Below are positions 12,714-61,492 of a stretch of DNA of 64,000 nucleotides, in pieces (position 1 is the stretch's first letter; each line of letters begins with the position of its first letter). The notes under the pieces were generated by a model. That model ran no database searches and was not told where the DNA came from. It saw only the letters and a list, made by a program, of their open reading frames with translations. The stretch covers positions 77,562,001 through 77,626,000 of the forward strand of contig NC_135811.1 of the NCBI RefSeq assembly GCF_964213995.1, written 5' to 3'. A program made the translations under genes and the position numbers. This stretch comes from Mustelus asterias. Its lineage: Eukaryota.

Positions 12714-15700
12714 TCACTTTCTTCTCCTGATTTGTGCCATTACGGAAGTCATCTGTTGTAATCGGGCCCTGGTCTCAGTGCGGATTATTTCCCAGGCACA
12801 TTGACTGAATTCCTGAAAAAGAAAATTATTCAGGAAAATGGATTAAAGAATGAATAGATTCCAAGAGGGTGAATTAATGTACATGCCAATAACCACACAG
12901 TCAATCATCAATGGTCCTACCTCCTGATTGAGGAACTTTTCCAGTTTCCTGAAGTAATTGTGAATGGTGAAGTTTCTCCTCATCTTGTGCTCTGACTCCT
13001 GTTTCCTGACACATTCTTCCAGCTCACTGAGCTGCCGATCCAGGATCAGTCGGAAATGTTCCACCTTGTCTCGGGCCCATGTGACTGAGCCCAGATTCAT
13101 GCTGTAGATCTTATTGATGTGTCGCAGAGTTTGATGGACAATCTGGATCCTGTCCTGTGTCTATACAAAATATACACAATGTAATTAGAGAGACTCCATT
13201 CCCCATAAGGGATCGTATGATATAGGCCACAAACAAATAAGGCTAAAAATGTTCAAATGGAAAATGTTCACCTTCAGCGTCTATGTGTATTGGAATCCCC
13301 ACATGGCAGGTTGGTTAAGAAGGTTAAGGCTCATGGGATAGAAGGAGAAGTGGCTAGATGGGTGGAGAACTGGCTTGGCCATAGGAGACAGAGGGTAGTG
13401 GTCGAAGGGTCTTTTTCCGCCTGGAGGTCTGTGACCAGTGGTGTTCCGCAGGGCTCTGTACTGGGACCTCTGCTATTTGTGATATAAATGATTTGGAAGA
13501 AGGTGTAACTGGTGAAATCAGCAAGTTTGCGGATGGCACAAAGATGGCTGGACTTGCGGATAGCGAAGAGCATTGTCGGGCAATACAGCAGGATATAGAT
13601 AGGCTGGAAAATTGGGCGGAGAGGTGGCAGATGGAGTTTAATCCGGATAAATGCGAAGTGATGCATTTTGGAAGAAATAATGTAGGGAGGATTTATACAA
13701 TAAATGGCAGATTCATCAGGAGTATAGAAACACAGAGGGACCTAGGTGTGCAAGTCCACAAATCCTTGAAGGTGGCAACACAGGTGGAGAAGGTCGTGAA
13801 GAAGGCAGGTGGTATGGTTGCCTTTATAGACTATAAAAGCTGGAGTCTGATGATGCAGCTGTATAGAATGCTGGTTAGGCCACATTTGGACTACTGCGTC
13901 CAGTTCTGGTCGCCGCACTACCAGAAGGACGTGGAGGCGTTAGAGAGAGTGCAGAGAAGGTTTACGAGGATGTTGCCTGGTATGGAGGGTCTTAGCTATG
14001 AGGAGAGATTGGGTAAACTGGGGTTGTTCTCCCTGGAAAGACGGAGAATGAGGGGCAATCTAATAGAGGTGTACAAGATTATGAAGGGGATAGATAGGGT
14101 GAACGGTGGGAAGCTTTTTCCCAGAGCAGAAGTGACGTTCACGACTGGTCACGGGCTCAAGGTGAGAGGGGCGAAGTATAACTCAGGTATTAGAGGGATG
14201 TTTTTAACACAGAGGGTGGTGGGGGCCTGGAATGCGCTGCCAAGTAGGGTGGTGGAGGCAGGCACGCTGACATCGTTTAAGACTTACCTGGATAATCACA
14301 TGAGCAGCCTGGGAATGGAGGGATATAAACGATTGGTCTAGTTGGACCAAGGAGCGGCACAGGCTTGGAGGGCCGAAGGGCCTGTTTCCTGTGCTGTACT
14401 GTTCTTTGTTCTTTAACTCAAAGATTGCTATTTCTTTCTTCATGGAATGTAAACATCACCGGCAAAGCCAGAATTTGTTGCTCATCCCTAATTGTATTTG
14501 ACATGAATATTACAGGTAATATTTAAGAGTCAACCACATGATTGTGGGTTTGCAGTCACTTGTAGGCCAGACCGAGTAAGGACAGCTGGTTTTCTTTCCT
14601 TGAAGGTTATTAATGAACCACATGGATCTTTACAACAACCTATGACAGTCCCATTGCTGGGAATAGCTATATTTGCAGATTTATGAATTGGGCATGAATT
14701 TGATTGGCTGCCCTGGTGGAAATTGAACTAAAGTACCCAGAGCATAACACTAGGCCTCGGGATTATTAGTCCAGTGGCATGAGCACTGTGCCACTATTAC
14801 CTCCTAAATATTATTGGGTCAATAATAATTGCAAATAAGCAATGGGAGTTTTAAAAGTGGAGATGTGTTGGATATAAATTGGGTTCCTTTCGATGAAGCA
14901 GAGAAGCCAGAGGCCATCCGATTTACAATAAAAATTAGACTCTTTGTTCAGTATAGAACCAAGCTGAATGCAGACCATATAAACCAAAATTACGAAAAGA
15001 AATGAGGGGTGAATACGGTGCATGAGAATTAATGAGAGGTATCGTGAAGGGGAAGCTAAAAATGGGTCATAAGAATATAAAGAATGTGGAGATGCTGCTT
15101 TTGGACTGGGGAGGAGAAGAGTCCAAGACGTCAATTTCAAATCAATGATTTGAACTTGGCTTCAGTTCAGAAGGAGATGCTTCAAATGTTACAGTAAAGG
15201 AAGAAGTAGTAAAGAAATTGGATGGGATAAAAATCGATAAAAAGGGGGTATCACTGTGGCCGTGCAACTGGGAATGTTGCTGCTTGTCCTCAATGCACCT
15301 GTCAAAAGTCCAGGATCAAAGAGGGACGACATTTCTAAGGTGAGTAAGACTTGGATGGAAGTGCTGGAGAGGTGAGGATTGTCAGAGATATGGGAACATG
15401 TCAGAAGCATAAGGTTGTTGTTCTTCCATCACATCTTGCACTGCACCAGATGCCGGTCATTTGACCAGTCCAGTACTGCCTTTGAATGAAAGACACACTC
15501 ACAACTCCTCCTGACCCCACCTACAATACTAGCAACCTGGAAGCAAACCGACAAGGTGACTTTCTGGATTCCCACTTGCTGAATCCCCTGATTCCGACTG
15601 GTTGTGTAAAGTTGTCAGTGGGGATGAGGCCCTTATGTGGGCATTAAATCTATGTCTCCCAGACCGTCTAACATCAGTTAATGGGAACAGTTTTCCCTTG

Positions 15701-16794: not shown

Positions 16795-16995
16795 TCCGTG
16801 TATATATGTAGACTGTGCTGGGAGGAACTGTCCCTGCCATGCTGTCGCAGGGGCTGGCGGTTACATTTAAAAAGTGAAATCTGGTAGCGGGAGTTTTGGA
16901 AGTTCTTCAGGAGACGAATAGTTAGTCTGCTCCCTGTCTGAGGTAAGGAATCGGAAAGCCGGAGATTCCGGAACCAGGGACTGGAAGATCCCCGA
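16795..16995 (-). promoter_or_regulatory. Proximal IFN promoter (locus A; repeated in B-F)
   Basis: TATATA at 16801-16806, AAAAGTGAAA IRF-E at ~16870, NF-kB consensus GGGATCTTCC (minus) at 16983-16992, GGAGATTCC at 16961. Confidence 0.6.
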
Positions 16996-18190
16996 TAGAA
17001 AAATCACGAATAGCGCTGGGTTCCAGCTCAAAGTTCCAACAATCTGGATCAATATTATTAATATCCATTTTGTAAAAACAGATTATTGCCTGCAAAGTGA
17101 TTGGATTCACATTAAGGGGACAAGAAAAGTTGCGGTTCCTCAGATTGTTGGATTTTGAGGCTGTTCTTCTTGAGTTCGCTGCCCGAATGCGGGCCCAACC
17201 CATTTTCCCACAAGAGCAGCATAAGGTGATCATTACATTCAGAAATGACACTTAATGTGCCCGTGACACAGGTAAACTCTCCCTCCTCCTTGTCGCTCTG
17301 ACCGCAGCCTTTGACATGGGCGAGCAGACCCTCATCATTCAACTCTCTCCCCCACGGTGCAACTGATTGGGAGCCCTCTCTCTGTCTCTCATTCTTACTG
17401 AAGTCATTGTACCCTGAAAATACTCAGAATCGCATCTTCTCCCCCGCCCCCCACACTCCACCACGCACCCCACCTTTCAGCCTCTGCTGTCCATGAGGAT
17501 CTCTCCCTGCTCCCTTTTCTAATTCTCATCTCCAAGCTGCCCCATGGGGACATCACTCACCATTTACCCATCACCCCTGTGCTGGTTGAATTATGTTGGC
17601 TCCTGCTTCAGGAATGCCTTGATTTTAAAAATCTCACCCTCATTTTCAAACTCCGCCAGTCCCTCATCCCTCCCTATCTCTGTAATCACCTCCAGCCGCG
17701 AATCCCGACGAGATATCTGCTCTGCTCCAATTCTGGCCCCTCCAGAAATCCCCATTTTAATTCACCCACCATGGGTGGGGTCTCTTCAGCTGCTCAACCC
17801 TCAACCTCTGTAATTTCTGCCCTAAACCTCTCCGCCCCTCGTTACTCCATTAAAACGCTCCTTAAAATCAACTTCATTCATCAAGTTATTGCTCACCTGC
17901 CTCAGTCTCTCCTCGTCCGTCTGGCTATCCAATGTTTCTGGATAACACGCCTGTAAATCACTTTGACCCATCAATCTCTCTCTATAATGATGAGTGCTTG
18001 TTACTGATGGGCTGTCTCTGATTTCCCCCCTCTCAGGCTCACATTCCCCTTTATCCTTCACTCAGTCTCCTTCTCCTCAATTTCTGCTTTCTATTTCTCT
18101 CTCAGATCAGAGTTGCTCCTTCAAACAGATTCAGATTCAATCTCTCCCGGTCCCTCTCTCCCCTCAATATCATTCCCAGTTTCAACTCAC

Positions 18191-18322
18191 CATTTGATTG
18201 AGTTTGCTGAGTGTGTGTGTGTTGAGAACTTGCTGTAACTGCAGCCTCTCGCAGCCCAGACTGAGGGTCCCGGACAAGAAGAGCGACACCATCCAAAATC
18301 TCCAAATCCTCGCCAAAGCCAT
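18191..18322 (-). CDS. IFN1: Distal duplicate first exon, locus A
   Basis: ATG, 44 open codons, Cys24 kept, GTGAGT donor in phase with exon 2. Confidence 0.75.
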
Positions 18323-19120
18323 GACCAACCGGGTCAGAGGGAAAGCCCGATGTGGAAGAGGAGAAACCGGCGGCTTTGGTGGTTCAGCGGCGAGAACGGT
18401 TCTTGCGAAGAGAATTCAAGTCGGGAAGTGGAATTGGAGCCGCTTGTGATCCGGGAGCGAGCGCCTGTGTTGCCGAATGGTGTGAGTGTGGATTCTGCTG
18501 CGAGCTGGCACTGGCACTGCCAGGCTGCCCGCTTTAATGTGCGCCCATTACATTGCAAAAGTGAAAATGGGCTGCAGGGGTTTTGGGAGAGCTGCGGGAG
18601 ATCAATAGTTTGTGCGGTTTCTGTGTGAGGTCAGGAATGGGAAAGCTGGAGACTCCCGAAGCAGCGAGTGAGAAATCCCCGGGAGAAAATCACAAGCAGC
18701 GCTCGGTTGCAGCTCAGTGTTGTGTAGGCTTCACATCACCCGGGGGGGCACTAAGGTGCTACAGAGGTGGGCTCTGTATTGGGAGGCAGTGTGGACATGG
18801 ATTGGGGGCTGCATTTGACCATCCGGATTATAGAGACACCGAGAGAGGCGTCTTTTAGTTGCGGGCATTCGGCCCCATTCCCTCTGATAGCCCCGCTGTG
18901 TTCACATCGCGTTTGTCCTGTTCACACTTCCCAGCTTGAACATTGCAGAGAGACCGGCTCAGAGCCCAGGCTCGCCGCTTAATGGAGACTGACTCCGCTC
19001 CCATTGAGCTGCCCCACAATCTGCTCTTTAACTGCAAGAAGTTGCTCATTTCTCGCTTCTTTTCTGCAGCCATTTCCAGACTCTGACTGAGAGAATATTG
19101 AATCTGTTCCGATTCTGAGT

Positions 19121-19260
19121 GGGAAAGTGATCCCGCTCCCTTTCCTTTCGCCCCGTTTGTTTCTCCTCTCTGTCCCGGGAAAGTGTCCGCCTCACTTTCT
19201 CTCTGGAAATGAGCCTTGTGTCAGTTTGTGCCGAAAGCGAAAGTGCCTCAGGGAAAGTGA
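19121..19260. promoter_or_regulatory. IRF/ISRE cluster, locus A
   Basis: Five GAAAGTG including GAAAGCGAAAGTG at 19233-19245. Confidence 0.65.
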
Positions 19261-20390: not shown

Positions 20391-20396
20391 CTTTCT

Positions 20397-23280: not shown

Positions 23281-26200
23281 TCAGTTTCTTCTCCTGATTT
23301 GTGCCATTACGGAAGTCATCTGTTGTAATCGGGCCCTGGTCTCAGTGCGGATTATTTCCCAGGCACATTCACTGAATTTCTGAAAAAGAAAATTATTCAG
23401 GAAAATGGATTACAGAATGAATAGATTCCAAGAGAGTGAATTAATGTACATGCAAATAACCACACAGTCAATCATCAATGGTCCTACCTCCTGATTGAGA
23501 AACTTTTCCAGTTTCCTGAAGTAATTGTGAATGGTGAAGTTTCTCCTCATCTTGTGCTCTGACTCCTGTTTCCTGACACATTCTTCCAGCTCACTGAGCT
23601 GCCGATCCAGGATCAGCCGGAAATGTTCTACCTTGTCTCGGGCCCATGTGACTGAGCCCAGATTCATGCTGTAGATCTTGTTGATGTGTCGCAGAGTTTG
23701 ATGGACAATCTGGATCCTGTCCTGTGTCTATACAAAATATACACAATGTCATGAGAGAGATTCCATTCCCCATAAGGCATAGTATGATATAGGCCATAAA
23801 CAAATAAGGCTAAAAATGTTCAAATGGAAAATGTTCACCTTCAGCGACTTAAAAGGGGATCAGGCCTATGTATATTGAAATCAAACATTGCTATTTCTTC
23901 CTACATAGCATGTGGGCATCACCGGCAAAGCCAGAATTTGTTGCTCATCCCTAATTGTATTTGACATGAATATTTCAGGTAACATTTAAGAGTCAACCAC
24001 ATGATTGTGGGTTTGCAGTCACTTGTAGGCCAGACCGAGTAAGGAGAGCAAGTTTTCTTTCCTTAAAGGTCATGAATGAACCACATGGATCTTTACAAGA
24101 ATCTTTGCCAGTCCCATTGCTGAGATTAGCTGTATTTCCAGGTTTATGAATTGAGCATGAATTCGACTGGCTGCCCTGGTGGAAATTGAACAAAAGTTCC
24201 CAGAGCATAACACTAGGCCTCGGGATTATTAGTCCAGTGGCATGAGCACTGTGCCACTATTACCTCCTAAACATTATTGGGTCAATAATAATTGCAAATA
24301 ACCAATGGTAGTTTTTAAAAATTGGAGATGTTTTGGATACAAATTGGACTCCTTTCGATGAAGCAGAGAGGCCAGAGGTCATCCGATTTACAATAAAATT
24401 TAGACTCTTTGTTCAGTATAGAACCAAGCTGAATGTAGACGATACACACCAAAATTATCAAAAGAAATGAAGGGTGTATGCTACAACTGTACAGGACCTT
24501 GGTGAGACCACATTTGGAATATTGTGTGCAGTTCTGGTCACCTCACTATAAGAAGGATGTGGAAGCGCTGGAAAGAGTGCAGAGGAGATTTACCAGGATG
24601 CTGCCTGGTTTGGAGGGTAGGTCATATGAGGAAAGGTTGAGGGAGCTAGGGCTGTTCTCTCTGGAGCCGAGGAGGCTGAGGGGAGACTTAATAGAGGTGT
24701 ATAAAATGATGAAGGGGATAGATAGAGTGAACGTTCAAAGACTATTTCCTCGGGTGGATGGAGCTATTACAAGGGGGCATAACTATAGGGTTCGTGGTGG
24801 GAGATACAGGACGGATATCAGAGGTAGGTTCTTTACGCAGAGAGTGGTTGGGGTGTGGAATGGACTGCCTGCAGTGATAGTGGAGTCAGACACTTTAGAA
24901 ACATTTAAGCGGTTATTGGATAGGCACATGGAGCACACCAGGATGATAGGGAGTGGGATAGCTTGATCTTGGTTTCAGATAAAGCTCGGCACAACATCGT
25001 GGGCCGAAGGGCCTGTTCTGTGCTGTACTGTTCTATGTTCTATGTTCTATGTGTATACGATGCATGAGAATTAATGCCAGGTATCGTAAAGGTGAAGCTA
25101 AAAATGGGTCATAAGAATATAAAGAATGTGGAGATGCCGGGATTGGACAAGGGAGGAGAAGATACGAGTCCAAGGTGTTTATTTGAAAACCGTAATTTGA
25201 ATTTGGCTCCAGTTGAGAAGGAGATGCTTCAAATGTTACAGTAAAGGGAGAAGTCGTCAAGAAATTGGATGGGATAAAAATAGATAAAAAGGGGGTATCA
25301 CTGTAGCGGTGAAACAGGGAATGTTGCTGCTTGTCCTCAATGCACCTGTCAAAATTCCAGGATCAAAGAGGGATGACATTTCTCAGGTGAATAAGTCTTG
25401 GATGGAAGGCCTGGAGAGGTGAGGATTGTAGGAGATATGGGAAATTGGTCAGAAGCATAAGGTTGTTGTTCTTCCAACACATCTTGCACTGCAATGATGC
25501 CGGGTCACTTGACCAGTCCAGTACTGCCTTTGAATGAGAGACATACCCACAATTCCACCTGACCCCACCGACAATACTAGCAACCTGGAAGCAAACCGAA
25601 AACATGACTTTCTGGATTCCCACTTGCCGAATCCCCTGATTCCTACTGGTTGTGTAAAGATGTCAGTGGGGATAAGGCCCTTATATGGGCATTACATCTG
25701 TGTCTCCAAGACCCTCTAACATCAGTTAATGGGAACAGTTTTCCCTTGACTGCCTTTCGGAAACAGCCATAATCCTGAAATATTCTGCACTCAGGCTGTT
25801 TCCCAAAGATGTAATGTACATTGTTAACGCAAGGGATATTTCAATTCCATTGAGTCACATAAGAGTCACATAAGAGTCACACGCTGCATGGAGGCATGTT
25901 GAATTTCATTGCACTTTCTGTCATTTTGAAGTTGAAATGTTTTGTAATACTCTTCGGCAAATGTTATGAATAATTCATATTTTTGTGGTGAAAGTTAGTG
26001 ATCAGAAGAATGAAAGTGTAAGGGACAGGGAGATACAGAAAATACAATAGTTCGCGGGCATCTGATCATTCGAACAAGAGGGCTTATTGGAGAGGAAGGA
26101 ATGGTTCGAGGGACGGATATAATTTCAGGGGGTTCGAGAAAGAGATAGTAAGTGCGGTAACAGTGAAATTACGGAGTGAGTTAGATACAGAGTGAAATAC

Positions 26201-26658
26201 AATGACAGAGAATTCTGCCATTGTCACAATGGGTGGAAATCACACGATTGAAAATTCTTGCAGTTGCCAGTTCCGATCAGATTGTTGATCTAACTTTCTA
26301 TAAAACCTCTGTCTAAATAAAATGAACCGAGATTTTACTCACCTCTAATCCCTTCGAAAGTTTCACCAGGTCCAAGGGCTTGGATTTCAGGAAGTGTCTC
26401 TGTTTTATACAGTGTTGGGGAAAGGAGCCACCCTGAGAGGAGAAAAAATATAATTAATTATAAATCCCCAGAAATGTCTCCTGATTTGACATTTCACACG
26501 CTGCTCAGAATGCAGCTTTAACTCACCATTTGATTGAGTTTGCTGAGTGTGTGTGTGTTGAGAACTTGCTGTAACTGCAGCCTCTCATAGCCCAGACTGA
26601 GGGTCCCGCACAAGAAGAGCGACACCATCCAGAATCTCCAAATACTCGCCAATGCCAT
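23281..26658 (-). CDS. IFN1: Type I interferon, locus B; open frame but Cys24>Tyr in the proximal exon 1
   Basis: Exons 26658-26527 (..SLGYERL..), 26432-26343, 23727-23488, 23379-23281 (KFSECAWEIIR..RRRN*); GT-AG phase 0. Confidence 0.9.
24478..25050 (+). mobile_element. CR1-clade LINE 3' fragment in intron 2 of locus B
   Basis: ORF 24478-24966 LYRTLVRPHLEYCVQFWSP..FFTQRVVGVWNGLP; (GTTCTAT)n tail; GTGTAT flanking repeat. Confidence 0.92.
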
Positions 26659-28242
26659 GACCAACCGAGTCAGAGTGAAACCCCGAACTGAGGATAAGAC
26701 ACCGACCGGATCCGGGTTCAACTCCGAACAATTATTTTCAAACGAATGAAAATCTAAATAGTTCCGCTTCTGAACACCGAGTGAACCGCTGAGCTGTTCA
26801 GTTCTCTTTCCGTGTGTCTGTCTCTCTCTCTCTGTGTATCCGTGTATATATGTGGACTGTGCTGGGAGGGACTGTCCCTGCCATGCTGTCTCAGGTGCTG
26901 GCGATTACATTGGAAAAGTGAAATCTGGTAGCGGGAGTTTTGGAAGTTCTTCAGGAGAGGAATAGTTAATCTGCTCCCTGTCTGAGGTAAGGAATCGGAA
27001 AGCTGGAGTTTCCGGAACCAGGGACTGAAAGATCCCCGAGAGAAAAATCACAAACAGCGCTCGGTTACAGCTCAAAGTTCCAACAATCGGAATCAATATT
27101 ATTAATATCCATTTTGTAAAAGCAGATTATTCCCTTCAAATTGGATTCACTTTAAGGGTACAATAAATTTGCGGTTCGTCAGATTGTTGGAGTTTGAGGC
27201 TGTTCTTCTTGAGTTCTCTGACCGAAGGCGGGCCCAACCCATTTTCCCACAAGAGCTCCATAAGGTGATTATTACATTCAGAAATGACACTCAATGTGCC
27301 CGTGACACAGGTAATCTCTCCCTCCTCCTTGTCGCTCTGTCCGCAGCCTTTGACATGGGCGCGCAGACCATCATCATTCAACTCTCTCCCCCACGGTGCA
27401 ACTGATGGGGAGCACTCTCTCTGCCTCTCATTCTTACTGAAGTCATTGTACCCTGAGAATATCCAGAATCGCATCCTTTCTCCCCCACACTCCACCACGC
27501 ACCTCACCTTTCAGCCTCTGCTGTCCATGAGGATATCTCCCTGCTCCCTTTTCTAATTCTCATCTCCACGCTGCCCCATGGGGACATCACTCACCATTTA
27601 CCCATCACCCCTGTGCTGGTTGAATTATGTTGGCTCCTGCTTCAGGAATGCCTTGATTTTAAAAATCTCACCCAAATTTTCAAACTCCGCCAGTCCCTCA
27701 TCCCTCCCTATCCCTGTAATCACCTCCAGCCGCGAATCCCTACGAGATACCTGCGCTGCTCCAATTCTTTCCCCGCGCCCCCCCCCCACCCCCCCTGAAT
27801 TCCCCATTTTCATTCACCCACGATGGGTGGTGTCTCTTCAGTTGCTCAACCCTCAACCTCTGTAATTTCTGCCCTAAACCTCACCGCCTCCCTTTACCCC
27901 ATTAAAACGCTCCTTAAAATCAACTTCATTCATCAAGTTATTGCTCACCTGCCTCAGTATCTCCTCGTCTGACTGACTATCCAATGTTTCTGGATAACAC
28001 GCCTGTGAATCACTTTGAACCATCAATCTCTCTCTATAAAGATGAGTGCTTGTTACTGATGGGCTGTCTCTGATTTCCCCCCTCTCAGGCTCACATTCCC
28101 CTTTATCCTTCACTCAGTCCCCTTCTCCTCAATGTCTGCTTTCTATTTCTCTCTCCGATCAGAGTTGCTCCTTCAAACAGATTCAGATTCAATCTCTCCC
28201 GGTCCCTCCCTCCCCTCAATATCATTCCCAGTTTCAACTCAC

Positions 28243-28374
28243 CATTTGATTGAGTTTGCTGAGTGTGTGTTTGTTGAGAACTTGCTGTAACTGCAGCCTC
28301 TCGCAGCCCAGACTGAGGGTACCGGACAAGAAGAGCGACACCATCCAAAATCTCCAAATCCTCGACAAAGCCAT
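28243..28374 (-). CDS. IFN1: Distal duplicate first exon, locus B (Cys24 retained)
   Basis: ATG, 44 codons, SLGCERL, GTGAGT donor. Confidence 0.75.
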
Positions 28375-32800: not shown

Positions 32801-34030
32801 GTCGCAGAGTTTGATGGACAATCTGGATCCTGTCCTGTGTCTATACAAAATATACACAATGCCATTAGAGATTCCATTCCCCATAAGGCATCGTATGATA
32901 TAGGCCATAAACAAATAAGGCTAAAAATGTTCAAATTAAAAATGTTCATCTTCAGCGACTTAAAAGGGGATCAGGCCTATGTGTATTGGAATCAAACATT
33001 GCTATTTCTTCCTACATAGCATGTGGTAATCACCTGCAAAACCAGAATTTGTTGCTCATCCCTAATTGTATTTGACATGAATATTTCAGGTAACATTTAA
33101 GAATCAACCACATGATTGTGGGTTTGCAGTCACTTGTCGGCCAGACCGAGTAAGGACAGAGGTTTTCTTTCCTTAAAGGTCATTAATGAACCAGATGGAC
33201 GTTTACAACAATCTATGACAGTCCCATTGCTGGAATTAGCTGTATTTCCAGATTTATGAATTGAGAATGAATTCAACTGGCTGCCCTGGTGGAAATTGAA
33301 CAAATGTGCCCACAGCCTAACACTAGGCCTCGGGATCATTAGTCCAGTGGCATGAGCACTGTGTCACTATCACCTCCTAAATATTATTTATTGGGTCAAT
33401 AATTATTGCAAATAAGCAATGGGAGTTTTTGAAAGTGGAGATGTTTTGGATACAAACTTGGCTCCTTTTATTGAAGCAGCGAGGCCAGAGGACATCCGAT
33501 TTACAATAAAAATTAGACTCTTTGTTCAGTATAGAACCAGGCTGAATGCAGACCATATACACAAAAATTATCAAAAGAAATTAGGAGTGAATACGATGCA
33601 TGAGAATTAATGAGAGGTATCGTAAGGAGGAAGCTAAAAATGGGTCATACTAACATAAAGATTGTGGAGATGGTGATGTTGGATGAGGGGGGAGAAAATA
33701 CAAGTCCAAGATGTTTATTTGAAATCAGTGATTTGAAATTGGCTCCAGTTGAGAAGGAGATGCTTCAAATGTTACAGTAAAGGGAGAAGTAGTCAAGAAA
33801 TTGGATGCGATAAAAATCGATAAAAAGGGGGTATCACTGTGGTGGTGAAACTGGGAATGTTGCTGCCTGTCCTCAATGCATCTGTCAAAAGTCCAGGATC
33901 AAAGAGGGATGACACTTCTCAGGTGAGTAAAACCTGGATGGAAGTCCTGGAGAGGTGAGGATTGTAGGCAATATGGGAAAATGGACAGAAACATAAGGTT
34001 GTTGTTCTTCCATCACATCTTGCACTGCAC

Positions 34031-45407: not shown

Positions 45408-45539
45408 CATTTGATTGAGTTTGCTGAGTGTGTGTTTGTTGAGAACTTGCTGTAACTGCAGCCTCTCGCAGCCCAGACTGAGGGTCCCGGTCAAGAAGAG
45501 CGACACCATCCAAAATCTCCAAATCCTCGCCAAAGCCAT
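45408..45539 (-). CDS. IFN1: Distal duplicate first exon, locus D
   Basis: ATG, 44 codons, GTGAGT donor. Confidence 0.75.
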
Positions 45540-47057: not shown

Positions 47058-50055
47058 TTTCTGTAGACCGGAGACACAATGCAATTTTCAATAATGCTGA
47101 CAGGAATAAACTAATGGTAAATAAAACTGTCGGAATTGTAAGGGAGGGTCAGGAATGTCGAGGAAGAATTTTACAAACAACATTAGCCAGAAACATGCCC
47201 GGAAAGAACAAGACCTATGGCAGCATGTCCACCTTCACCCGGTAGAAATCTCCGCTCCATTCACAGATACCTGGGTCCAATTTAATTTCTTGAATGCTTT
47301 CATGAAATATGAGCGACTCTGCAGGGCAATATTTGTTGCTCATTCCTAATTGCCCCGCAGACGGTGATGGTGAGCCGTTTGTTTTTTACTTGCTGCTGTC
47401 CTTGTGAAGGAAATAAACCTATAGGAGTGTTGGGAAGAGATTTCCAGGATGTTTATCCAGAAAGAGTGAAGGAATGGTGATGTGGTCCCGAGTCGGCATG
47501 CTGGGTGGCTTGAAGGTGAACTTGCAGGTTGTGTTCTTAATATGCGTTTGTTACCCTTGATCTTCTGGGGGGTGGAGGTGGTGGGTTTGGAAGGTGCTGT
47601 TGAAGGAGCCTGAGTGGATTGCTGCAATGAATCTTGTAGATGGGACACACTGCTGCCACTGTGCGGTGGTGGTGCGGAAGTCAATGTTTAAGTTCGTGAA
47701 AGGAGTGCAGACTTCCGGGTATAGATATTATACAATGAGTGGAGATTTCATGCTATGTAGAAATTGAAGACAATTGTACAGCTGTTTCTTTATCCTCACT
47801 TTTCACCCTTTCCGCCTCCACCACCCTTACCGAAATTGAGAGGTTATTGCAAAACTTTCTGCTCCAATTTAATTGCCAATTAATAAATGTGACATGAAGC
47901 AGCACAACGGGACGGTATATTCAAATTCATTTAAAAACTACATTAAACTGTTAATTTATGCACTTCTGCTTTTATTTGGATGCAGAATAACTCATTCACG
48001 ATATCTGTTGACCCAAACCATAGATACTTTAATGAACTTATCAGTTTACCCTCTGTTTGAATACTGCTTTAAAATGACTGAAAATGAGCTTTAAAAAGAC
48101 AGGTCCATATTCTGCTGAATCTGGGGTACAATATTTATTTTCTTTTCAAATTCAAAAGTTACATTGCCAATCACTTCATCACAGGTCTATTGCTGTCCTC
48201 ACACCAAAATGACTCAATTTTGTTTCTGGAGCCTTATTGAAGGCCTGTAAACAATTTCAATGGTGAATAATTTACCCGGGGTTAGCCAGTTTCATGTGGG
48301 CCCTGTTTTCAGTATAATTGTTTCACAAAAGGCTTACATCCATGTGACACCCTCACTGGTCACAGAATATCTCAAGCATTTCACAGCTGATGGAGTGGCT
48401 TTGAGGTACATTGACTGTTGTAATATAGGAAACACATGAGCCAATTTGTGCTTCATACTCCCACAAACAGCACTCTGATGACAGACAGAGAACCTGGTTT
48501 AATGATATTGATTGTGGGTAATTATCAGGTTGGCAATCTGGAATTAGTGGATTGCTCCTCCTTCTTTAGTTCTTTTGTAATACAATCATTATTTAACATG
48601 CAGATTTCCAGAAGGTGTAAACCATGATACCACATGAGAGATTTTCATCCTCACGTTCCACATATTCTCTTCCCTACCCATAGTCTGATGTCTCCTTAGC
48701 CCATTGACTGATTTCCCAATCTGTACTCTGCCGCTTTTTAAACGTTTGTTCACATGGGTTGCATGTCACGGGAATGGTCTGTGTTTGTTGCCCATCCCTA
48801 ATTGCCCTGAATGGAGATAGCATGCAAGGCCACTTGAGAGGGCAGCTAAAACGTAAGCACAATGCTGTGGTTCTGCAGCCACATGTCGGCCAGAACAGGA
48901 ATGGAGGGTAGATTTCCTTTCCAGACATGAGTGAATCAGATGGGTTTTTCGGGCAAATTCACAGAAATGGGAAAGATACATAATTTCAACAAATGTGTAT
49001 TATTAAAAACAATTTATTGCAAATATTAAATACATCAAAACATGGTCTCATTCAGTATAAAAATTGCCAGCGTGGAAAAACAATGTTTATTCCATAACTC
49101 TAAATAAATATCAATAACTTAACATTTTAAAACTCATTTTATACATTGTGGAAACTGTCACATTTTGTTACACAAAGACATCACAACAATAAATATCAAT
49201 AAATTAGGGCAGCTGAAATTGGTTGAAATTTCCATTTAGGAGGGTAGAAATGGAAACGTCAGCGTGGCTTTGGGTTTATTGTTCTGCAAACCCACTTCCT
49301 GCAAGCCTGACAGTACATTCCAAATCAGACTCTCCACACACTGAAACTGTAACGTTGCATCAGAGGAAAATAACACAGTTGTAAATATCAATAAATTAAA
49401 AATAAATAAAAATAAATAACCCAACAAATCATCCAGTATTCTCCCATCATTAAAGTAAAGTATAAAATTCATGACAAATATCCATAAACAAATATAGTTT
49501 TAAATGAAAATTCTTTAAAACAAATATTCATTGTTCCCAGTCCGTAATAGAAAAGTCTTTTTCAGTTTCTTCTCCTGATTTGTGCCATTACAGAAGTCAT
49601 CTGTTGTAATCGAGCCCTGGTCTCAGTGCGGATTATTTCCCAGGCACATTCACTGAATTTCTGAAAAAGAAAATTATTCAGGAAAATGGATTACAGAATG
49701 AATAGATTCCAAAGGGGTAAATTAATGTACATGCCAATAACCACACAGTCAATCATCAATAGTCCTACCTCCTGATTGAGAAACTTTTCCAGTTTCCTGA
49801 AGTAATTGTGAATGGTGAAGTTTCTCCTCATCTTGTGCTCTGACTCCTGTTTCCTGACACATTCTTCCAGCTCACTGAGCTGCCGATCCAGGATCAGCCG
49901 GAAATGTTCCACCTTGTCTCGGGCCCATGTGACTGAGCCCAGATTCATGCTGTAGATCTTGTTGATGTGTCGCAGAGTTTGATGGACAATCTGGATCCTG
50001 TCCTGTGTTTATACAAAATATACACAATGCCATTAGAGATTCCATTCCCCATAAG

Positions 50056-50377
50056 TTAGCACTGCTGCTTCACAGCTCCAGGGTCCCAGGTTCGATTCCC
50101 GGCTCGGGTCACTGTCTGTGTGGAGTTTGCACATTCTCCTCGTGTCTGCATGGGTTTTCTCCGGGTGCTCCGGTTTCCTCCCACAGTCCAAAGATGTGCG
50201 GGTTAGGTTGATTGGCCAGGTTAAAAATTGCCCCTTAGAATCCTGAGATGCGTAGGTTAGAGGGATTAGCGGGTAAATATGTGGGGGTAGGGCCTGGGTG
50301 GGATTGTGGTTGGTGCAGACTCGATGGGCCGAATGGCCTCCTTCTGCACTGTAGAGTTTCTATGATTCTATGATTCT
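50056..50377 (+). mobile_element. 5'-truncated young HE1-like SINE
   Basis: Near-identical to 34727-35065; ATAAG target duplication 50051-50055 / 50378-50382. Confidence 0.92.
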
Positions 50378-51521
50378 ATAAGGCATAGTATGATATAGGC
50401 CATAAACAAATAAGGCTAAAAATGTTCAAATTAAAAATGTTCACCTTCAGCGACTTAAAAGGGGATCAGGCCTATGTGTATTGGAATCAAAGATTGCTAT
50501 TTCTTCCTACATAGCATGTGGGCATCACCTGCAAAGCCAGAATTTGTTGCTCATCCCTAATTGTATTTGACATGAATATTTCAGGTAACATTTAAGAATC
50601 AACCACATGATTGTGGGTTTGCAGTCACTTGTCGGCCAGACCGAGTAAGGACAGAGGTTTTCTTTCCTTAAAGGTCATTAATGAACCAGATGGACGTTTA
50701 CAACAATCTATGACAGTCCCATTGCTGGAATTAGCTGTATTTCCAGATTTATGAATTGAGAATGAATTCAACTGGCTGCCCTGGTGGAAATTGAACAAAT
50801 GTGCCCACAGCATAACACTAGGCCTCGGGATCATTAGTCCAGTGGCATGAGCACTGTGTCACTATCACCTCCTAAATATTATTGGGTCAATAATTATTGC
50901 AAATAAGCAATGGGAGTTTTTGAAAGTGGAGATGTTTTGGATACAAACTTGGCTCCTTTTATTGAAGCAGAGAGGCCAGAGGACATCCGATTTACAATAA
51001 AAATTAGACTCTTTGTTCAGTATAGAACCAGGCTGAATGCAGACCATATACACAAAAATTATCAAAAGAAATGAGGGGTGAATATGATGCATGAGAATTA
51101 ATGAGAGGTATCGTAAGGAGGAAGCTAAAAATGGGTCATACTAACATAAAGATTGTGGAGATGGTGATGTTGGACGAGGGGGGAGAAAATACAAGTCCAA
51201 GATGTTTATTTGAAATCAGTGATTTGAAATTGGCTCCAGTTGAGAAGGAGATGCTTCAAATGTTACAGTAAAGGGAGAAGTAGTCAAGAAATTGGATGCG
51301 ATAAAAATCGATAAAAAGGGGGTATCACTGTGGCGGTGAAACTGGGAATGTTGCTGCCTGTCCTCAATGCATCTGTCAAAAGTCCAGGATCAAAGAGGGA
51401 TGACACTTCTCAGGTGAGTAAAACCTGGATGGAAGTCCTGGAGAGGTGAGGATTGTAGGCAATATGGGAAAATGGACAGAAACATAAGGTTGTTGTTCTT
51501 CCATCACATCTTGCACTGCAC

Positions 51522-51864
51522 CATAGAATCATAGAATCCTACAGTGCAGAAAGAGGCCATTCGGCCCATCAAATCTGCACCGACCACAATCCCACCCAGT
51601 ACCTATCCACCAATCCCTACATATTTTATCCACTAACCCCTCTAACCTGTGCATCCCAGAACACTAAGGGACAATTTAGAATGGCCAATCAACCCAGCCC
51701 GCACATCTTTGGACTGTGGGAGGAAACCGGAGCACCCGGAGGAAACCCACGCAGACACAGGGAGAATGTGCAAACTCCACACAGAGAGCGACCCGAGCCG
51801 GGATTCGAACCCAGGTCGCTGGAGCTGTGATGCAGCAGTGCTAACCACTGTGCTACTGTGCCGA
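51522..51864 (-). mobile_element. HE1-like SINE in intron 2, shared with locus C
   Basis: Same site and sequence as 34031-34372. Confidence 0.9.
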
Positions 51865-54609
51865 CCAGATGCCGGTCACTTGACCAGTCCAGTACTGCCT
51901 TTGAATGAGAGACATACCCACAACTCCTCCTGACTCCACCTACAATGTTAGCAACCTGGAAGCAAACCGACAAGGTGACTTTCTCGATTCCCACTTGCTG
52001 AATCCCCTGATTCCTACTGGTTGTGTAAAGCTGTCAGTGAGGCTGAGGCCCTTATATGGGAATTAAATCTGTGTCTCCCAGACCGTCTAACATCAGTAAA
52101 TGGGAACAGTTTTCCCTTGACAGCCTTTCGGAAACAGCCATAATCCTGAGATATTCTGCACTCAGACTGTATCCCAAACATATCATGTACATTGTTAACG
52201 CGAAGGATATTTCAATTGCATTGAGTCGCATCAGAGTGGGACATGCTGCATGGAGGCATGTTGAATTTCATCGCACTTTCTATGATTTTGAAGTTGAAAT
52301 GATTTGTAATGCTATTCCGCAAATGTTATCAAGAATTCATATTTTTGGGGTGAAATCTAGTGATCAGAAGAATGAAAGTGTAAGGGGCAGGGAGATACAG
52401 AATTTGAAGTAGTTCGCGGGCATCTGATCGTTAGAGCAAGCGGGCTTATTGGAGAGGAAGGAATGGTTAGAGAGACCGATATAATTTCAGGGGGTTCGAG
52501 ATAGAGAGATAGTAAGTGCGGTAACAGTGAAATTACTGAGTGAGTAAGATACAGAGTGAAATACAATGACAGGGAATTCTGCCATTGTCACAATGGGTGG
52601 AAATCAGTGATTGAAAATTCTTGCCGTTGCCAGTTCCGATCAGATTGATGATCGAACTTTCTATAAAACCTGTGTCGAAATAAAATGAACCGAGATTTTA
52701 CTCATCTCTAATCCCTTCGTAAGTTTCACCAGGTCCAAGGGCTTGGATTTCAGGAAGTGTCTCTGTTTTATGCAGTGTTGGGGAAAGGAGCCACCCTGAG
52801 AGGAGAAAAAATATAATTAATTATAAATCCCCAGAAATGTCCCCTGATTTGACATTTCACACGCTGCTCAGAATGCAGCTTTAACTCACCATTTGATTGA
52901 GTTTGCTGAGTGTGTGTGTTGAGAACTTGCTGTAACTGCAGCCTCTCACAGCCCAGACTGAGGGTCCCGCACAAGAAGAGCGACACCATCCAAAATCTCC
53001 AAATACTCGCCAATGTCATGACCGACCGAGTCAGAGTGAAACCCCCGAACTGAGGATAAGATACCGGCCGGATCCGGCTTCAACTCCGAACAATTATTTT
53101 CAAACGAATGAAAATCTAAATAGTTCCGCTTCTGAACCCCGAGTGAACCGCTGAGCCGTTCAGTTCTCTTTCCGTGTGTCTGTCTCTCTCTCTCTCTGTA
53201 TCCGTGTATATATGTGGACTGTGCTGGGAGGGACTGTCCCTGCCATGCTGTCTCAGCGGCTGGTGATTACATTGGAAAAGTGAAATCTGGTAGCGGGAGT
53301 TTTGGAAGTTCTTTAGGAGAGGAATATTTAATCTGCTCCCTGTCTGAGGTAAGGAATCGGAAAGCTGGAGTTTCCGGAACCAGGGACTGGAAGATCCCCG
53401 AGAGAAAACTCACAAACAGTGCTCGGTTCCAGCTCAAAGTTCCAACAATCGGAATCAAGATTATTAATATCCATTTTGTAAAAACAGATTATTGCCTTTA
53501 AATTGATCGGATTCACATTACGGGGACAAGAAAAATTGCGGTTGGTCAGATTGTTGGAGTTTGAGGCTGTTCTTCTTGAGTTCGCTGCCCGAAGGCGGGC
53601 CCAACCCATTTTCCCACAAGAGCTCCATAAGGTGATTATTACATTCAGAAATGACACTCAATGTGCCCGTGACACAGGTAATCTCTCCCTCCTCCTTGTC
53701 GCTCTGTCCGCAGCCTTTGACATGGGCGCGCAGACCCTCATCATTCAACTCTCTCCCCCACGGTGCAACTGATGGGGAGCACTCTCTGAGCCTCTCATTC
53801 TTACTGAAGTCATTGTCCCCTGAGAATATCCAGAATCGCATCCTTTCTCCCCCACACTCCACCACGCACCTCACCTTTCAGCCTCTGCTGTCCATGAGGA
53901 TCTCTCCCTGCTCCCTTTTCTAATTCTCATCTCCAAGCTGCCCCATGGGGACATCACTCACCATTTACCCATCACCCCTGTGCTGGTTGAATTATGTTGG
54001 CTCCTGCTTCAGGAATGCCTTGATTTTAAAAATCTCACCCTCATTTTCAAACTCCGCCAGTCCCTCAGCCCTCCCTATCTCTGTAATCACCTCCAGCCGC
54101 GAATCCCTACGAGATATCTGCTCTGCTCCAATTCATTCCCCACGCGCCCCCCCCCCCCCCCCACAATTCCCCATTTTAATTCACCCACCATGGGCGGTGT
54201 CTCTTCAGCTGCTCAACCCTCAACCTCTGTAATTTCTGCCCTAAATCTCTACGCCCCTCTTTTCCCCATTAAAACGCTCCTTAAAATCAACTTCATTCAT
54301 CAAGTTATTGCTCACCTGCCTCAGTATCTCCTCGTCTGACTGACTATCCAATGTTTCTGGATAACACGCCTGTGAATCACTTTGAACCATCAATCTCTCT
54401 CTATAATGATGAGTGCTTGTTACTGATGGGCTGTCTCTGATTTCTCCTCTCTCAGGCTCACATTCCCCTTTATCCTTCACTCAGTCCCCTTCTCCACAAT
54501 TTCTGCTTTCTATTTCTCTCTCAGATCAGAGTTGCTCCTTCAAACAGATTCAGATTCAATCTCTCCCGGTCCCTCTCTCCCCTCAATATCATTCCCAGTT
54601 TCAACTCAC

Positions 54610-54741
54610 CATTTGATTGAGTTTGCTGAGTGTGTGTTTGTTGAGAACTTGCTGTAACTGCAGCCTCTCGCAGCCCAGACTGAGGGTCCCGGTCAAGAAG
54701 AGCGACACCATCCAAAATCTCCAAATCCTCGCCAAAGCCAT
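54610..54741 (-). CDS. IFN1: Distal duplicate first exon, locus E (intact)
   Basis: ATG, 44 codons, GTGAGT donor. Confidence 0.7.
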
Positions 54742-58723: not shown

Positions 58724-61492
58724 TCAGTTTCTTCTCCTGGTTTGTGCCATTACGGAAGTCATCTGTTGTAATCGGGCCCTGGTCTCAGTGCGGATTATTT
58801 CCCAGGCACATTCACTGAATTTCTGAAAAAGAAAATTATTCAGGAAAATGGATTACAGAATGAATAGATTCCAAAGGGGTGAACTAATGTACATGCCAAT
58901 AACCACACAGTCAATCATCAACAGTCCTACCTCCTGATTGAGAAACTTTTCCAGTTTCCTGAAGTAATTGTGAATGGTGAAGTTTCTCCTCATCTTGTCT
59001 CTGACTCCTGTTTCCTGACACATTCTTCCAGCTCACTGAGCTGCCGATCCAGGATCAGCCGGAAATGTTCCACCTTGTCTCGGGCCCATGTGACTGAGCC
59101 CAGATTCATGCTGTAGATCTTGTTGATGTGTCACAGAGTTTGATGGACAATCTGGATCCTGTCCTGTGTCTATACAAAATATATACAATGCCATTAGAGA
59201 GATTCCATTCCGCATAAGGCACAGTATGATATAGGCCATAAACAAATAAGGCTAAAAATGTTCAAATGGAAAATGTTCACCTTCAGCGACTTAAAACGGG
59301 ATCAGGTCTATGTGTACTGGAATCAAACATTGCTACTTCTTCCTTCATGGGATGTGGGCATCACTGGCAAAGCCAGAACTTGTTGCTCATCCCTAATTGT
59401 ATTTGACATGAATATTTCAGGTGACATTTAAGAGTCAACCACATGACTGTGGGTTTGCAGTCACTTGTAGGCCAGACCGAGTAAGGACAGCAGGTTTTCT
59501 TTCCTTAAAGGTCATTAATGAACCACATGGATCTTTACAACAATCTATGACACTCCCATTGCTGGGATTAGCTGTATTTCCAGATTTATGAATTGAGCAT
59601 GAATTCGACTGGCTGCCCTGGTGGAAATTGAACTAAAGTTCCCAGAGCATAACACTAGGCCTCGGGATTATTAGTCCAGTGGCATGAGCACTGTGCCACT
59701 GTTACCTCCTAAATATTATTGGGTCAATAATTATTGCAAATAAGCAATGGGAGCTTTGAAAAGTGGAGATGTTTTGGATACAAACTGGGCTCCTTATGAT
59801 GAAGCAGAGAGGCCAGAGGCCATCTGATTTACAATAAAAATTAGACTCTTTGTTCAGTATAGAACATATACGCCAAAATTATCAAAAGAAATGAGGGGTA
59901 AATACGGTGCATGAGAATTAATGAGAGGTATCGTAACGAGGAATCTAAAAATGGGTCATAAGTATCTAAAGAATGTGGAGGTGGCGGTGTTGGATTCGGG
60001 GGAAGAAGATCAGGGTCCAAGACGTTTATTTGAAATCAGTAATTTGGATTTGGCTTCAGTTCAGAAGGAGATGCTTCAAATGTTACCGCAAAGGGAGAAG
60101 TAGTAAAGAAATTGGATGGGGTAAAAATCGATTACAAAAGGGGCATCACTGTTGCCGTGCAAATGGGAATGTTGCTGCTTGTCCTCAATGCACCTGTCAA
60201 AAGTCCAGGATCACAGAGGGATGACATTTCTAAGGTGAGTAAGACCAAGATGGAAGTCCTGGAGAGGTGAGGATTGTAGGAGATCTGGGAACATGGTCAG
60301 AAGCATAAGGTTGTTGTTCTTCCATCACATCCTGCACTGCACCAGATGCTGGGTCACTTGACCAGTCCAGTACTGTCTTTGAATGAGAGACATACCCACA
60401 ACTCCTCCTGACCCCACCTACAATACTAGCAACCTGGAAGCAAACCGACAAGATGACTTTCTGGATTCCCACTTGCTGAATCCCCTGATTCCTACTGGTT
60501 GTGTAAAGTTGTCAGTGGGGATGAGGCCCTTATATGGACATTAAATTTGTGTCTCCCAGACCGTCTAACATCAGTTAATGGGAACAGTTTTCCGTTGACT
60601 GCCTTTCGGAAACAGCCATTATCCTGAAATTTTATGCACTCAGGCTGTATCCCAAACATGTAATGTACATTGTTAACGCTAGGGATGTTTCAATTCCATT
60701 GACTCACATAAGAGTGGGACATGCTGCATGGAGGCATGTTGAATTGAAGGCATTGCACCTTCTATAATTTTGAAGTTGAAATGTTTTGTAATGCTCTTCC
60801 GCGAATGATATGAATAATTTACATTTTTGGGGTGAAAGTTAGTGATCAGAAGAATGAAACTGTAAGGGACAGAAAATAAAATAATTCGCGGGCATCTGAT
60901 CATTCCAGCAAGCGGGCTTATTGGAGAGGAAGGAATGGTTAGAGATACGGATATAATTTCAAGGGGTTCGAGATGGAGAGTTAGTAAGTGCGGTAACAGT
61001 GAAATTAGTTAATGAGTTAGATACAGAGTGAAATACAATGACAGGGAATTCTGCCATTGTCACAATGGGTGGAAATCACACGATTGAAAATTCTTGCAGT
61101 TGCCAGTTCCGATCAGATTGTTGATCTAACTTTCTATAAAACCTGTCTAAATAAAATGAACCGAGATTTTACTCACCTCTAATCCCTTCGAAAGTTTCAC
61201 CAGATTTAAGGGCTTGGATTTCAGGAAGTGTCTCTGTTTTATACAGTGTTGGGGAAAGGAGCCACCCTGAGAGGAGAAAAAATATAATTAATTATAAATC
61301 CCCAGAAATGTCTCACGATTTTACATTTCACACGCTGCTCAGAATACAGCTTTAACTCACCATTTGATTGAGTTTGCTGAGTGTGTGTGTGTTGAGAACT
61401 TGCTGTAACTGCAGCCTCTCACAGCCCAGACTGAGGGTCCCGGACAAGAAGAGCGACACCATCCAAAATCTCCAAATACTCGCCAATGCCAT
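58724..61492 (-). pseudogene. IFN1: Type I interferon, locus F, pseudogene
   Basis: Exons 61492-61361, 61266-61177, 59169-58931, 58822-58724; exon 3 has CGA>TGA at 59131-59133 and a 1-bp deletion near 58998. Confidence 0.9.

Follow-up and report, generated by a model that had tools for sequence, protein, structure and literature searches.

A tandem array of four-exon type I interferon genes with a doubled promoter and first exon in the shark Mustelus asterias

In the available text of PMC5332411 (Secombes and Zou, 2017) the type I interferon (IFN) genes of cartilaginous fish are defined by 4 exons and 3 phase-0 introns, and three tandem genes are described in elephant shark. The available portions of PMC6640115 (Redmond et al., 2019) add a second elephant shark locus and one partial catshark sequence, report lineage-specific IFN expansion with birth-and-death in cartilaginous fish, and prefer birth-and-death over concerted evolution; by the same portions (refs 37 and 38 in PMC6640115), the mammalian IFN-alpha cluster consists of near-identical tandem copies with pseudogenes and conversion. 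Type IV IFN (IFN-upsilon) genes have five coding exons and an N-terminal CXXXXX[W/L] motif, and they lie between ADARB2 and PFKP as one or two copies (PMC8863823).

We analyzed a 64-kb stretch of the Mustelus asterias genome, hereafter the window. Self-BLAST showed that the window is a tandem array from end to end, with six units of 8-10.6 kb (U1-U6) on the minus strand, each carrying one 4-exon type I IFN gene, and with two further units cut by the window ends. The first-pass annotation had described at least eight units, six of them complete, encoding 186-aa four-Cys proteins with three phase-0 introns, and self-BLAST together with exon mapping confirmed this description. The mapped exons comprise 12 copies of exon 1 and six copies each of exons 2, 3, and 4, and the promoter plus signal-peptide exon 1 is doubled in every uncut, undeleted unit. 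The doubled exon 1 had been seen at first pass and left uninterpreted; it is the distinctive feature of the array. No flanking non-IFN gene was found within the 64-kb window (the conserved fish IFN1 locus has a GH / CD79 neighbourhood). The features are as follows.

1179..1310, minus strand: U0 distal exon 1, intact; the remainder of the gene is beyond the left end of the window
12714-18322, minus strand: U1 whole, open with proximal or distal exon 1
12714..12812, minus strand: U1 exon 4, 32 codons plus stop, with the CAWE motif
12921..13160, minus strand: U1 exon 3, 80 codons
16299..16388, minus strand: U1 exon 2, 30 codons
16483..16614, minus strand: U1 proximal exon 1, signal peptide and start of the mature protein, open; 94-nt intron to exon 2
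18191..18322, minus strand: U1 distal exon 1; 1802-nt intron to exon 2
16861..17030, minus strand: U1 proximal promoter block, putative by motif matches, 75% like the distal block
18323..18722, minus strand: 400 nt upstream of U1 distal exon 1, with NF-kB-like and IRF-type sites
19129..19259, no strand: U1 GAAAGYG cluster, six words, 800-940 nt upstream of the distal ATG
23281..28374, minus strand: U2 whole; exon 4 23281-23379, exon 3 23488-23727, exon 2 26343-26432
26527-26658 and 28243-28374, minus strand: U2 proximal (C24Y) and distal exon 1
32394..37570, minus strand: U3 whole; exon 4 32394-32492, exon 3 32601-32840, exon 2 35559-35648
35743-35870 and 37439-37570, minus strand: U3 proximal (4-nt deletion) and distal exon 1
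41506..45539, minus strand: U4 whole; exon 4 41506-41604, exon 3 41713-41952, exon 2 43515-43604
43699-43830 and 45408-45539, minus strand: U4 proximal and distal exon 1, both forms open
49562..54741, minus strand: U5 whole; exon 4 49562-49660, exon 3 49769-50008 (acceptor AA), exon 2 52706-52795 (donor AT)
52890-53019 and 54610-54741, minus strand: U5 proximal (2-nt deletion) and distal exon 1
58724..61492, minus strand: U6 pseudogene; exon 4 58724-58822, exon 3 58931-59169, exon 2 61177-61266
61361-61492, minus strand: U6 proximal exon 1, open; U6 is without a distal module
62489..62490, no strand: deletion junction, ~3.5 kb lost including the U6 distal exon 1 and promoter
from 62490: next unit, with its 3' flank alone inside the window

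The exons measure 132, 90, 240, and 99 nt, every junction is in phase 0, and the window genes thus have the exon organization of the cartilaginous-fish definition. The spliced product (186 aa) carries Cys at 24, 52, 124, and 159, together with the CAWE motif and the IFN-alpha-type four-Cys pattern. That this product is a type I IFN, as had been claimed, is borne out by PF00143, which P0030, P0033, P0003, and P0029 match at 93-98 bits against a curated cut-off of 26.8 (P0030, which is U2 spliced from distal exon 1: 98 bits, E 7e-28). Searched alone, U1 exon 3 scored 44.4 bits (E 2.6e-11) and U1 exon 4 scored 24.2 bits, below the cut-off; exon 1 or exon 2 alone gave no Pfam match. Compared by sequence with solved structures, the product gave 26 matches, of which the best 20 carry an interferon name (7wkh, E 3e-19; IFN-alpha1, 2e-17; IFN-omega, 4e-16) and not one is called IFN-lambda, IFN-gamma, or IL-10. 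The four Cys align with those of IFN-alpha1 and are kept in 96, 95, 96, and 96 of 96 shark proteins. A putative signal peptide has its hydrophobic stretch at 9-22 (mean hydropathy 1.6) and an S-L-G end before Cys24. Type IV IFN was rejected on the four exons, the many copies, and Gln at the sixth place after Cys24, type III and type II IFN on the Pfam and structure-match results, and membership in amniote IFN-alpha on three introns versus an intronless gene. We concluded from the sequence that the window genes are type I interferons, with a chance match excluded. On virus induction, antiviral activity, and use of IFNAR1/IFNAR2 the sequence gives hints at most, namely the IRF/NF-kB-like words and the 10-14 ATTTA words in each 3' flank.

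The first pass had also called a 4-exon shark gene with pseudogenes and had counted two intact units, two damaged only in the proximal exon 1, and two disabled. Exon mapping supports the former, and the tally of lesions holds as well: U1 and U4 are intact with either exon 1, the lesions of U2 and U3 are confined to the proximal exon 1, and exon 3 of U6 is broken by an in-frame stop and a 1-nt deletion (frameshift). U5 has the 2-nt deletion in its proximal exon 1, a donor changed from GT to AT after exon 2, and an acceptor changed from AG to AA before exon 3, but it is perhaps not dead because RefSeq P0029 (XP_078080575.1, 189 aa) equals U5 when the donor is moved 15 nt and the acceptor 6 nt downstream; P0032 is a second RefSeq copy with the same 5-residue extension. 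The distal forms of U1, U2, and U3 are identical to P0033 (XP_078079072.1), P0030 (XP_078080572.1), and P0035 (XP_078080573.1), and the proximal form of U4 is identical to P0003 (XP_078080574.1); no match to U6 was found among the RefSeq entries returned. Since one spliced form of four of the six units, and U5 with shifted sites, match RefSeq proteins, the locus is already annotated, and the warning that it is easy to mis-annotate was overstated. These automatic models carry one exon 1 each, inconsistently picked (distal in 4 of the 5 units modelled, proximal for U4), and the doubled head is invisible in the protein records examined. Proximal-type residues occur in at least two further Mustelus copies in RefSeq (P0002, P0032). 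The Mustelus asterias entries (XP_078079069-72, XP_078080570-75, and XP_078080577) are labelled 'interferon alpha-B-like / alpha-7-like', the subtype-B gene is XP_078079068.1, and one 111.7-Mb contig holds 11 distinct proteins of the window subtype, 1 of subtype B, and 10 of subtype C.

The proposed dN/dS-type check gave pairwise pN/pS counts of 0.26 for exons 2-4 of U1-U4 and 0.23 for all six units. These counts (pN/pS about 0.25) show purifying selection on exons 2-4 and no sign of positive selection. The units are 5.5-7.6% apart (3.3% in one mosaic pair), and the expansion is recent in a relative sense. U5 is a mosaic of U2-like and U3-like DNA. Birth-and-death, the process named at first pass, finds support in the dead copies, but it is half the story because copies exchange DNA by conversion, which is equally evident. 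It is very improbable that the array is an assembly artefact in which haplotypes or repeats were written out repeatedly. A 1845-nt tract 98.4% identical between U3 and U5 would suit such an artefact; however, differences of 3.3-7.6% over 3651 ungapped columns are beyond what two haplotypes yield for six units, and each unit has private insertions, with intron 2 ranging from 1562 to 3138 nt. Contigs of 4 out of 4 runs cover the unit, one of them with a U4-exact piece; this run is possibly the source of the window and therefore does not count as independent support. In run X1 the contig depth of the U4-exact piece is 21.6 versus 115-119 for the shared pieces, which fits several copies and is not a copy number. 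No RNA run was listed among the 21 matching runs, and none of the 15 joints listed of 30 (4 of the 21 runs) is an exon junction; introns are covered in a DNA-like manner, so these joints are uninformative on expression.

The two exon 1 copies have fared differently. The distal copy is open and keeps Cys24 and its donor in all six cases, whereas the proximal copy is open in four of the six units and damaged in three (two frameshifts, one Cys24 loss), a contrast of 0/6 versus 3/6 among few and related copies. Variation is lowest in the distal exon 1 (p-distance 0.019 versus 0.035 for the proximal one, where pN is 0.029 and pS 0.059). From -400 to -1, 17 of 408 columns vary among the six distal copies versus 73 of 426 among the proximal ones (p 6e-10 by Fisher's test, taking columns as independent), with p-distances of 0.017 versus 0.072 (0.012 versus 0.054 without CpG columns) and 0.06-0.07 in neutral segments. 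The distal 400 bp are thus about four times more conserved and form the most conserved non-coding segment of the unit. Consistent with this, a second organism's DNA run contains both flanks and the spacer, and the distal flank is the least changed (11/458 letters versus 22/500 and 32/725). A recent conversion sweep, instead of selection, could also account for the low divergence of the distal upstream DNA. Six GAAAGYG words (IRF/ISRE-type) are present in 6/6 distal modules and none in 6/6 proximal ones (1080 nt), and 37 of the 53 matches in the window fall in six 300-nt blocks; shuffles gave 0.13, maximum 1 (of 300), for a motif picked after viewing the sequence. A 170-nt block common to the two promoters, 73-75% alike, retains an IRF-type site in each. 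The proximal promoter has a TATA-like word at about -192 and one IRF-type site in 6/6 copies; TATA[AT]A is not matched in the distal promoter. Between distal and proximal exon 1 there are zero fixed differences in 132 nt (pS 0.071), and their similarity ends abruptly at -28 and +13. These edges, the lack of fixed differences, and the 73-75% block argue for an old duplicate homogenized by conversion. A conserved double-exon-1 protein joined through CCTCAG, 29-30 nt before the proximal ATG, was considered and rejected on frame, which differs among the copies (3/6 each).

The best explanation as a whole, to which we give a probability of about 0.55, is that the distal head drives expression and that the proximal one is ancestral and decaying. 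Before the amplification a second promoter and exon 1 were probably gained ~1.6 kb upstream of the original. One subtype was amplified by unequal crossing-over of a ~9-kb unit, as the tandem, same-strand, and mosaic units show, and purifying selection and gene conversion maintain near-identity while some copies die. Transcription would most likely begin at the distal promoter, controlled by IRF and NF-kB, and splicing would skip the proximal exon 1 and join the distal one directly to exon 2, yielding a normal secreted 186-aa IFN. The proximal exon 1, with its 94-nt intron and residues seen in other sharks, would be the ancestral one and keep its likeness mainly through conversion. U6, the sole unit without a distal exon, carries a stop and a frameshift despite an open proximal exon 1 (n = 1).

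Alternatively, both heads may be used and both transcripts encode a secreted protein, one promoter serving, for example, early induction and the other IFN feedback or another tissue, with the proximal losses as subfunctionalization. The two open exon 1 copies of U1 and U4 and the IRF-type site retained by both promoters fit such a gene, as do skate P0115 and P0116, in which a different signal-less N-terminus is joined at the exon-2 boundary, and the two-promoter IFN genes of salmon, zebrafish, and trout in the available part of PMC5127012. We nevertheless regard it as rather unlikely, given that the proximal upstream DNA diverges at the neutral rate and half of the proximal exons are damaged. 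The use of the proximal exon 1 alone is more doubtful still. The distal one would then be the orphan of a truncated neighbour gene, kept intact by conversion, with upstream DNA acting at most as an enhancer; the U2 protein would lack Cys1, and U3, U5, and U6 would be dead. The short intron and the TATA-like word favour the proximal exon, and tandem arrays commonly contain orphan pieces. An orphan, however, is expected to decay faster, yet the distal exon is the lesion-free and less variable copy, and exons 2-4 remain open in U2 and in U3, whose splice sites are normal although its proximal exon is frameshifted.

The distal head may derive, at about even odds, from the 5' part of a paralogous subtype-B gene that lost its exons 2-4 by deletion. 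Among 96 proteins, Arg5 plus Lys35 is found only in five Mustelus proteins of the window subtype and in the Mustelus subtype-B protein P0011, from which the distal exons differ at 3 residues and the open proximal exons at 4-6. This origin is not established because the exon 1 of subtypes A and B is homogenized within genera (0.93 versus 0.77 identity) and no exon 2 remnant was found; between the two exon 1 copies, a search for a second, decayed exon 2 gave no significant match beyond the six known copies. A wider proposal, which we hold tentatively and at less than even odds, is that the promoter and exon 1 of a neighbouring paralogue were captured, that amplification of the chimera produced a dozen copies as the gene's own promoter decayed, and that this is a case of an exon-mosaic rule in sharks and rays.

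The array itself adds little, as RefSeq already lists shark IFN1 clusters from many species. Seven further clusters at 90% identity, from other sharks or other subtypes, hold 7-22 proteins each, and within-species identities are 0.95-0.97 in six species (bounded by construction, coming from 90%-identity clusters). The suggested shark-lineage amplification is Mustelus-specific, in that the two Mustelus rows of the window subtype group at 100/99 in both trees, but expansions of this kind are ordinary because similar clusters occur in many sharks. Shark IFN1 repertoires comprise 20 or more gene models versus a handful in the available parts of the published studies, and conversion and birth-and-death both act on them. 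If the mosaic proposal is true, exons 1-2 of shark and ray IFN1 hold a subtype identity predating the shark-ray split, exons 3-4 are exchanged within lineages, and whole-protein trees mix two histories, so that published whole-protein early-IFN trees would need an exon-wise re-check. The captured head would likewise bring a dense IRF/ISRE enhancer, with the promoter swap half-way in every copy. With the doubled promoter and signal-peptide exon, the replacement of one regulatory region by another in an antiviral gene becomes directly testable; for gene counting and cloning, damage to the proximal exon 1 alone does not make a pseudogene.

The cartilaginous-fish IFNs of PMC5332411 and PMC6640115 likewise have 4 exons and 3 introns, four Cys, tandem clusters, and lineage expansion, and by eye the partial-transcriptome catshark IFN1 row Scca_1 (PMC6640115, supplement file 3) reads like the window subtype; the available parts of these two papers make no mention of 20-gene shark clusters, exon-level mosaics, or a doubled exon 1. 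The teleost IFNa/IFNphi1 gene, in the available part of PMC5127012, likewise has two promoter regions and alternative 5' ends on an intron-containing type I IFN gene. Its upstream transcript is without a signal peptide and gives a non-secreted IFN, whereas the shark distal exon 1 encodes a full signal peptide, and teleost IFN genes have 5 exons versus 4 in the window. Mammalian IFN-alpha shares the C1-C3 / C2-C4 cysteine positions with the window protein (alignment to IFN-alpha1), but it is intronless and has functionally diverged subtypes, whereas the window copies are intron-bearing, about 96% identical, and under purifying selection. The window cluster would thus work like the IFN-alpha cluster and is not a member of it, 'IFN-alpha-like' being an analogy and a RefSeq label.

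The window is filled by tandem minus-strand units of 8.1-10.6 kb, and the shark type I interferon (IFN) array proposed in the first-pass annotation stands as a whole. Exons 2, 3, and 4 are found in six units (U1 to U6) and exon 1 occurs 12 times; exon sizes are 132, 90, 240, and 99 nt, every junction is in phase 0, and the spliced product has 186 aa with Cys at positions 24, 52, 124, and 159. The intron leading to exon 2 is 94 nt from the proximal (inner) exon 1 and 1790-1814 nt from the distal (outer) copy; the remaining two introns are, in order, 1562-3138 nt and 108 nt. Exon mapping recovered every lesion listed earlier: C24Y (U2) and a 4-nt deletion (U3) in proximal exon 1; a 2-nt deletion in proximal exon 1, donor AT, and acceptor AA in U5; and a stop and 1-nt deletion in exon 3 of U6, whose distal exon 1 is gone through a ~3.5 kb deletion ending at 62490.

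The genes encode type I IFN, an identity borne out by Pfam: PF00143 matches the complete proteins with 93-98 bits and exon 3 by itself with 44.4 bits, and the best 20 of 26 matches in a PDB search are interferons. The locus is already annotated. With exon 3 as the query against longer proteins, 28 of 35 candidates matched, all with shark names, and the top full-length matches were Mustelus asterias proteins (98% and 96%); two of 10 protein clusters examined contain, between them, 11 different M. asterias proteins of the window's subtype (A; the names A, B, and C are our own, defined by motifs in exons 1 and 2). One spliced form is identical to an M. asterias database protein in four of the six units, using the distal exon 1 in U1, U2, and U3 and the proximal one in U4. 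U5 would yield a 189-aa entry if the donor is moved 15 nt and the acceptor 6 nt further downstream; the predicted substitute donor, GTTCAT, looks weak. RefSeq uses in-frame replacements for both lost sites (window positions 52691-52705 and 50003-50008). Another Mustelus copy, P0032, also carries the donor loss and 5-residue extension of U5, so this change has been copied from one unit to another. Several database entries are over-long (P0103, P0092, and P0001; 226-349 aa), two visibly with repeated exon content; such entries in other species are probably gene models fused across adjacent copies, a real mis-annotation.

The array is not an assembly artefact. The units diverge by 5.5-7.6%, with one pair at 3.3% (3651 ungapped columns), self-comparison reveals private insertions, and the unit is covered by contigs of all four DNA-like sequencing runs compared, from two organisms, the best run possibly being the window's own source. 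Sharks accumulate substitutions slowly. The two Mustelus subtype A rows group at 100/99 in trees of 30 chosen rows, and catshark genes adjoin them with weaker support (81/81 and 90/93), so that the amplification or its homogenisation postdates the split from catsharks. The expansion, previously called recent, is young in that sense; with units this far apart it is recent only relatively. Mobile elements have also entered the array:

4282-11214, plus strand: LTR retroelement between U0 (the partial unit at the left window end) and U1
9814-10461: env-like frame (Pfam HR1-HR2 above cut-off at 28.6 bits; a weak TLV_coat match)
~13283-14411: LINE-type fragment in intron 2 of U1 only

The retroelement has two ~660-nt LTRs (97.4% alike), the first followed by a primer-binding-site-like word, presumably of tRNA-Ser type; its other frames are broken (longest 343 codons), and no matching target-site duplication surrounds it. 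About 500 nt of unit flank is present on both sides (93% alike), which hints at recombination between units there. The LINE-type fragment stays open over 318 codons, a stretch that matches RVT_1 weakly and below cut-off (16 bits).

The copies exchange DNA with one another. U5 is a mosaic, nearest U2 in its upstream part and nearest U3 across intron 2. Among 160 informative sites, four-gamete conflicts climb with distance, from 0.25 at <200 nt to 0.53 at >1000 nt (permutation p 0.001). Exons 2-4 are under purifying selection (pS 0.057, pN 0.013-0.015, ratio 0.23-0.26), and we infer selection for dosage more than for diversification.

Every unit neither cut nor deleted has two exon 1 copies ~1.6 kb apart. 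They show zero fixed differences over 132 nt (p-distance 0.048, pS 0.071), but the likeness stops at -28 and +13, and the sole further common block of the two heads (exon 1 plus upstream promoter region), at about -400 to -225, matches at 73-75%; a young-looking exon in an old duplicate suggests conversion. Repeat fragments of very high copy number lie at 44720-45100, within the spacer between the copies, and at 42046-42236, within intron 2; contig depths there reach tens of thousands.

A number of observations point to the distal copy as the working exon 1. Upstream p-distance is 0.017 for distal versus 0.072 for proximal copies (introns and 3' flanks, 0.06-0.07), variable upstream columns number 17/408 versus 73/426, and the gap in divergence persists without CpG columns; of the pieces compared in the run from the second organism, the distal flank has once more changed least. 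The same low divergence could be left by a conversion sweep and look like constraint. Lesions occur in none of six distal and three of six proximal exon 1 copies, and the stop and frameshift fall in U6, the sole unit that lacks a distal module. Six GAAAGYG words, a motif picked after sequence inspection, cluster at -940 to -800 in 6/6 distal modules and are absent upstream of the proximal copies; the word fits the IRF consensus. Against the distal copy we count the TATA-like word and IRF-type site retained by the proximal promoter, the lack of a TATA match in the distal promoter, a proximal exon 1 open in 4/6 units, and the RefSeq choice of the proximal copy in U4. As for its origin, Ser5 and Thr35 are usual in proximal exon 1, as they are in the subtype A and B genes of catsharks, lamniforms, and horn shark, while among 96 proteins (102 minus 6 removed by length) the combination of Arg5 and Lys35 is confined to five Mustelus proteins of subtype A and the single Mustelus subtype B protein. 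This distribution and the old promoter-block divergence fit a distal head that would be the front of a subtype B gene, left by deletion before a whole subtype A gene; since no exon 2 remnant was found and conversion could produce the same Arg5/Lys35 pattern, we put the odds at about even.

Across elasmobranchs (P0001-P0126), IFN1 genes look like exon mosaics. Subtype C is monophyletic in exon 1-2 trees (100/99), a partly circular result as C is named by its exon 1 motif, and its clade is rejected in exons 3-4 (AU p 0.0002, 20 rows). Because these rows derived from the exon 3 query, the test was repeated with 28 chosen rows, including full-length-query matches (51 of 95 candidates) and two batoids; the clade was again found in exons 1-2 (100/98), and the AU test again rejected it for exons 3-4 (p 6e-5). 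In that region the C genes from Heptranchias, Pristiophorus, and batoids fall with non-C genes of their own lineage. The regions are short, at 74 and 112 columns. Exons 1-2 appear to preserve a subtype split predating sharks versus rays, and exons 3-4 do not; a rival to conversion for this pattern is convergent selection acting on the C-terminal half.

IFN1 expansion of this kind is ordinary among sharks. Protein clusters include one of Cetorhinus and Carcharodon (22 proteins; 13 and 2, respectively, among 15 listed), two of Scyliorhinus (14 and 7), one of Heterodontus (9), one mainly of Chiloscyllium (9), one mainly of Stegostoma (8), and a second Mustelus subtype (10). The proposed amplification with birth-and-death is real, but common in sharks and already annotated. 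The accessible text of PMC5332411 gives four exons for cartilaginous-fish IFN and, for elephant shark, a tandem row of three genes; that of PMC6640115 describes lineage-specific expansion in cartilaginous fishes, favours birth-death over concerted evolution, and tabulates a single partial catshark IFN1. A term search of the available part of PMC6795676 gave nothing relevant, and a literature search, with subscription papers mostly outside its reach, found no report of large shark IFN1 clusters or doubled exon 1. The doubled promoter and exon 1, with its predicted head use, may be new, as may the mosaicism of exons among sharks and rays.

An IFN-upsilon identity was ruled out by exon number and motif, on the definition in the accessible part of PMC8863823. 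Teleost IFNa/IFNphi1 has two promoters and an upstream transcript without signal peptide (PMC5127012, as far as accessible), whereas the shark upstream transcript, as predicted, would retain it. In two skate or skate-like IFN1 proteins (P0115 and P0116) another N-terminus, lacking a signal peptide, is attached at the exon 2 boundary, which is reminiscent of the teleost non-secreted isoforms. The shark genes have introns and so are not members of the mammalian IFN-alpha cluster, but the array resembles that cluster in its working, with many copies, conversion, and pseudogenes.
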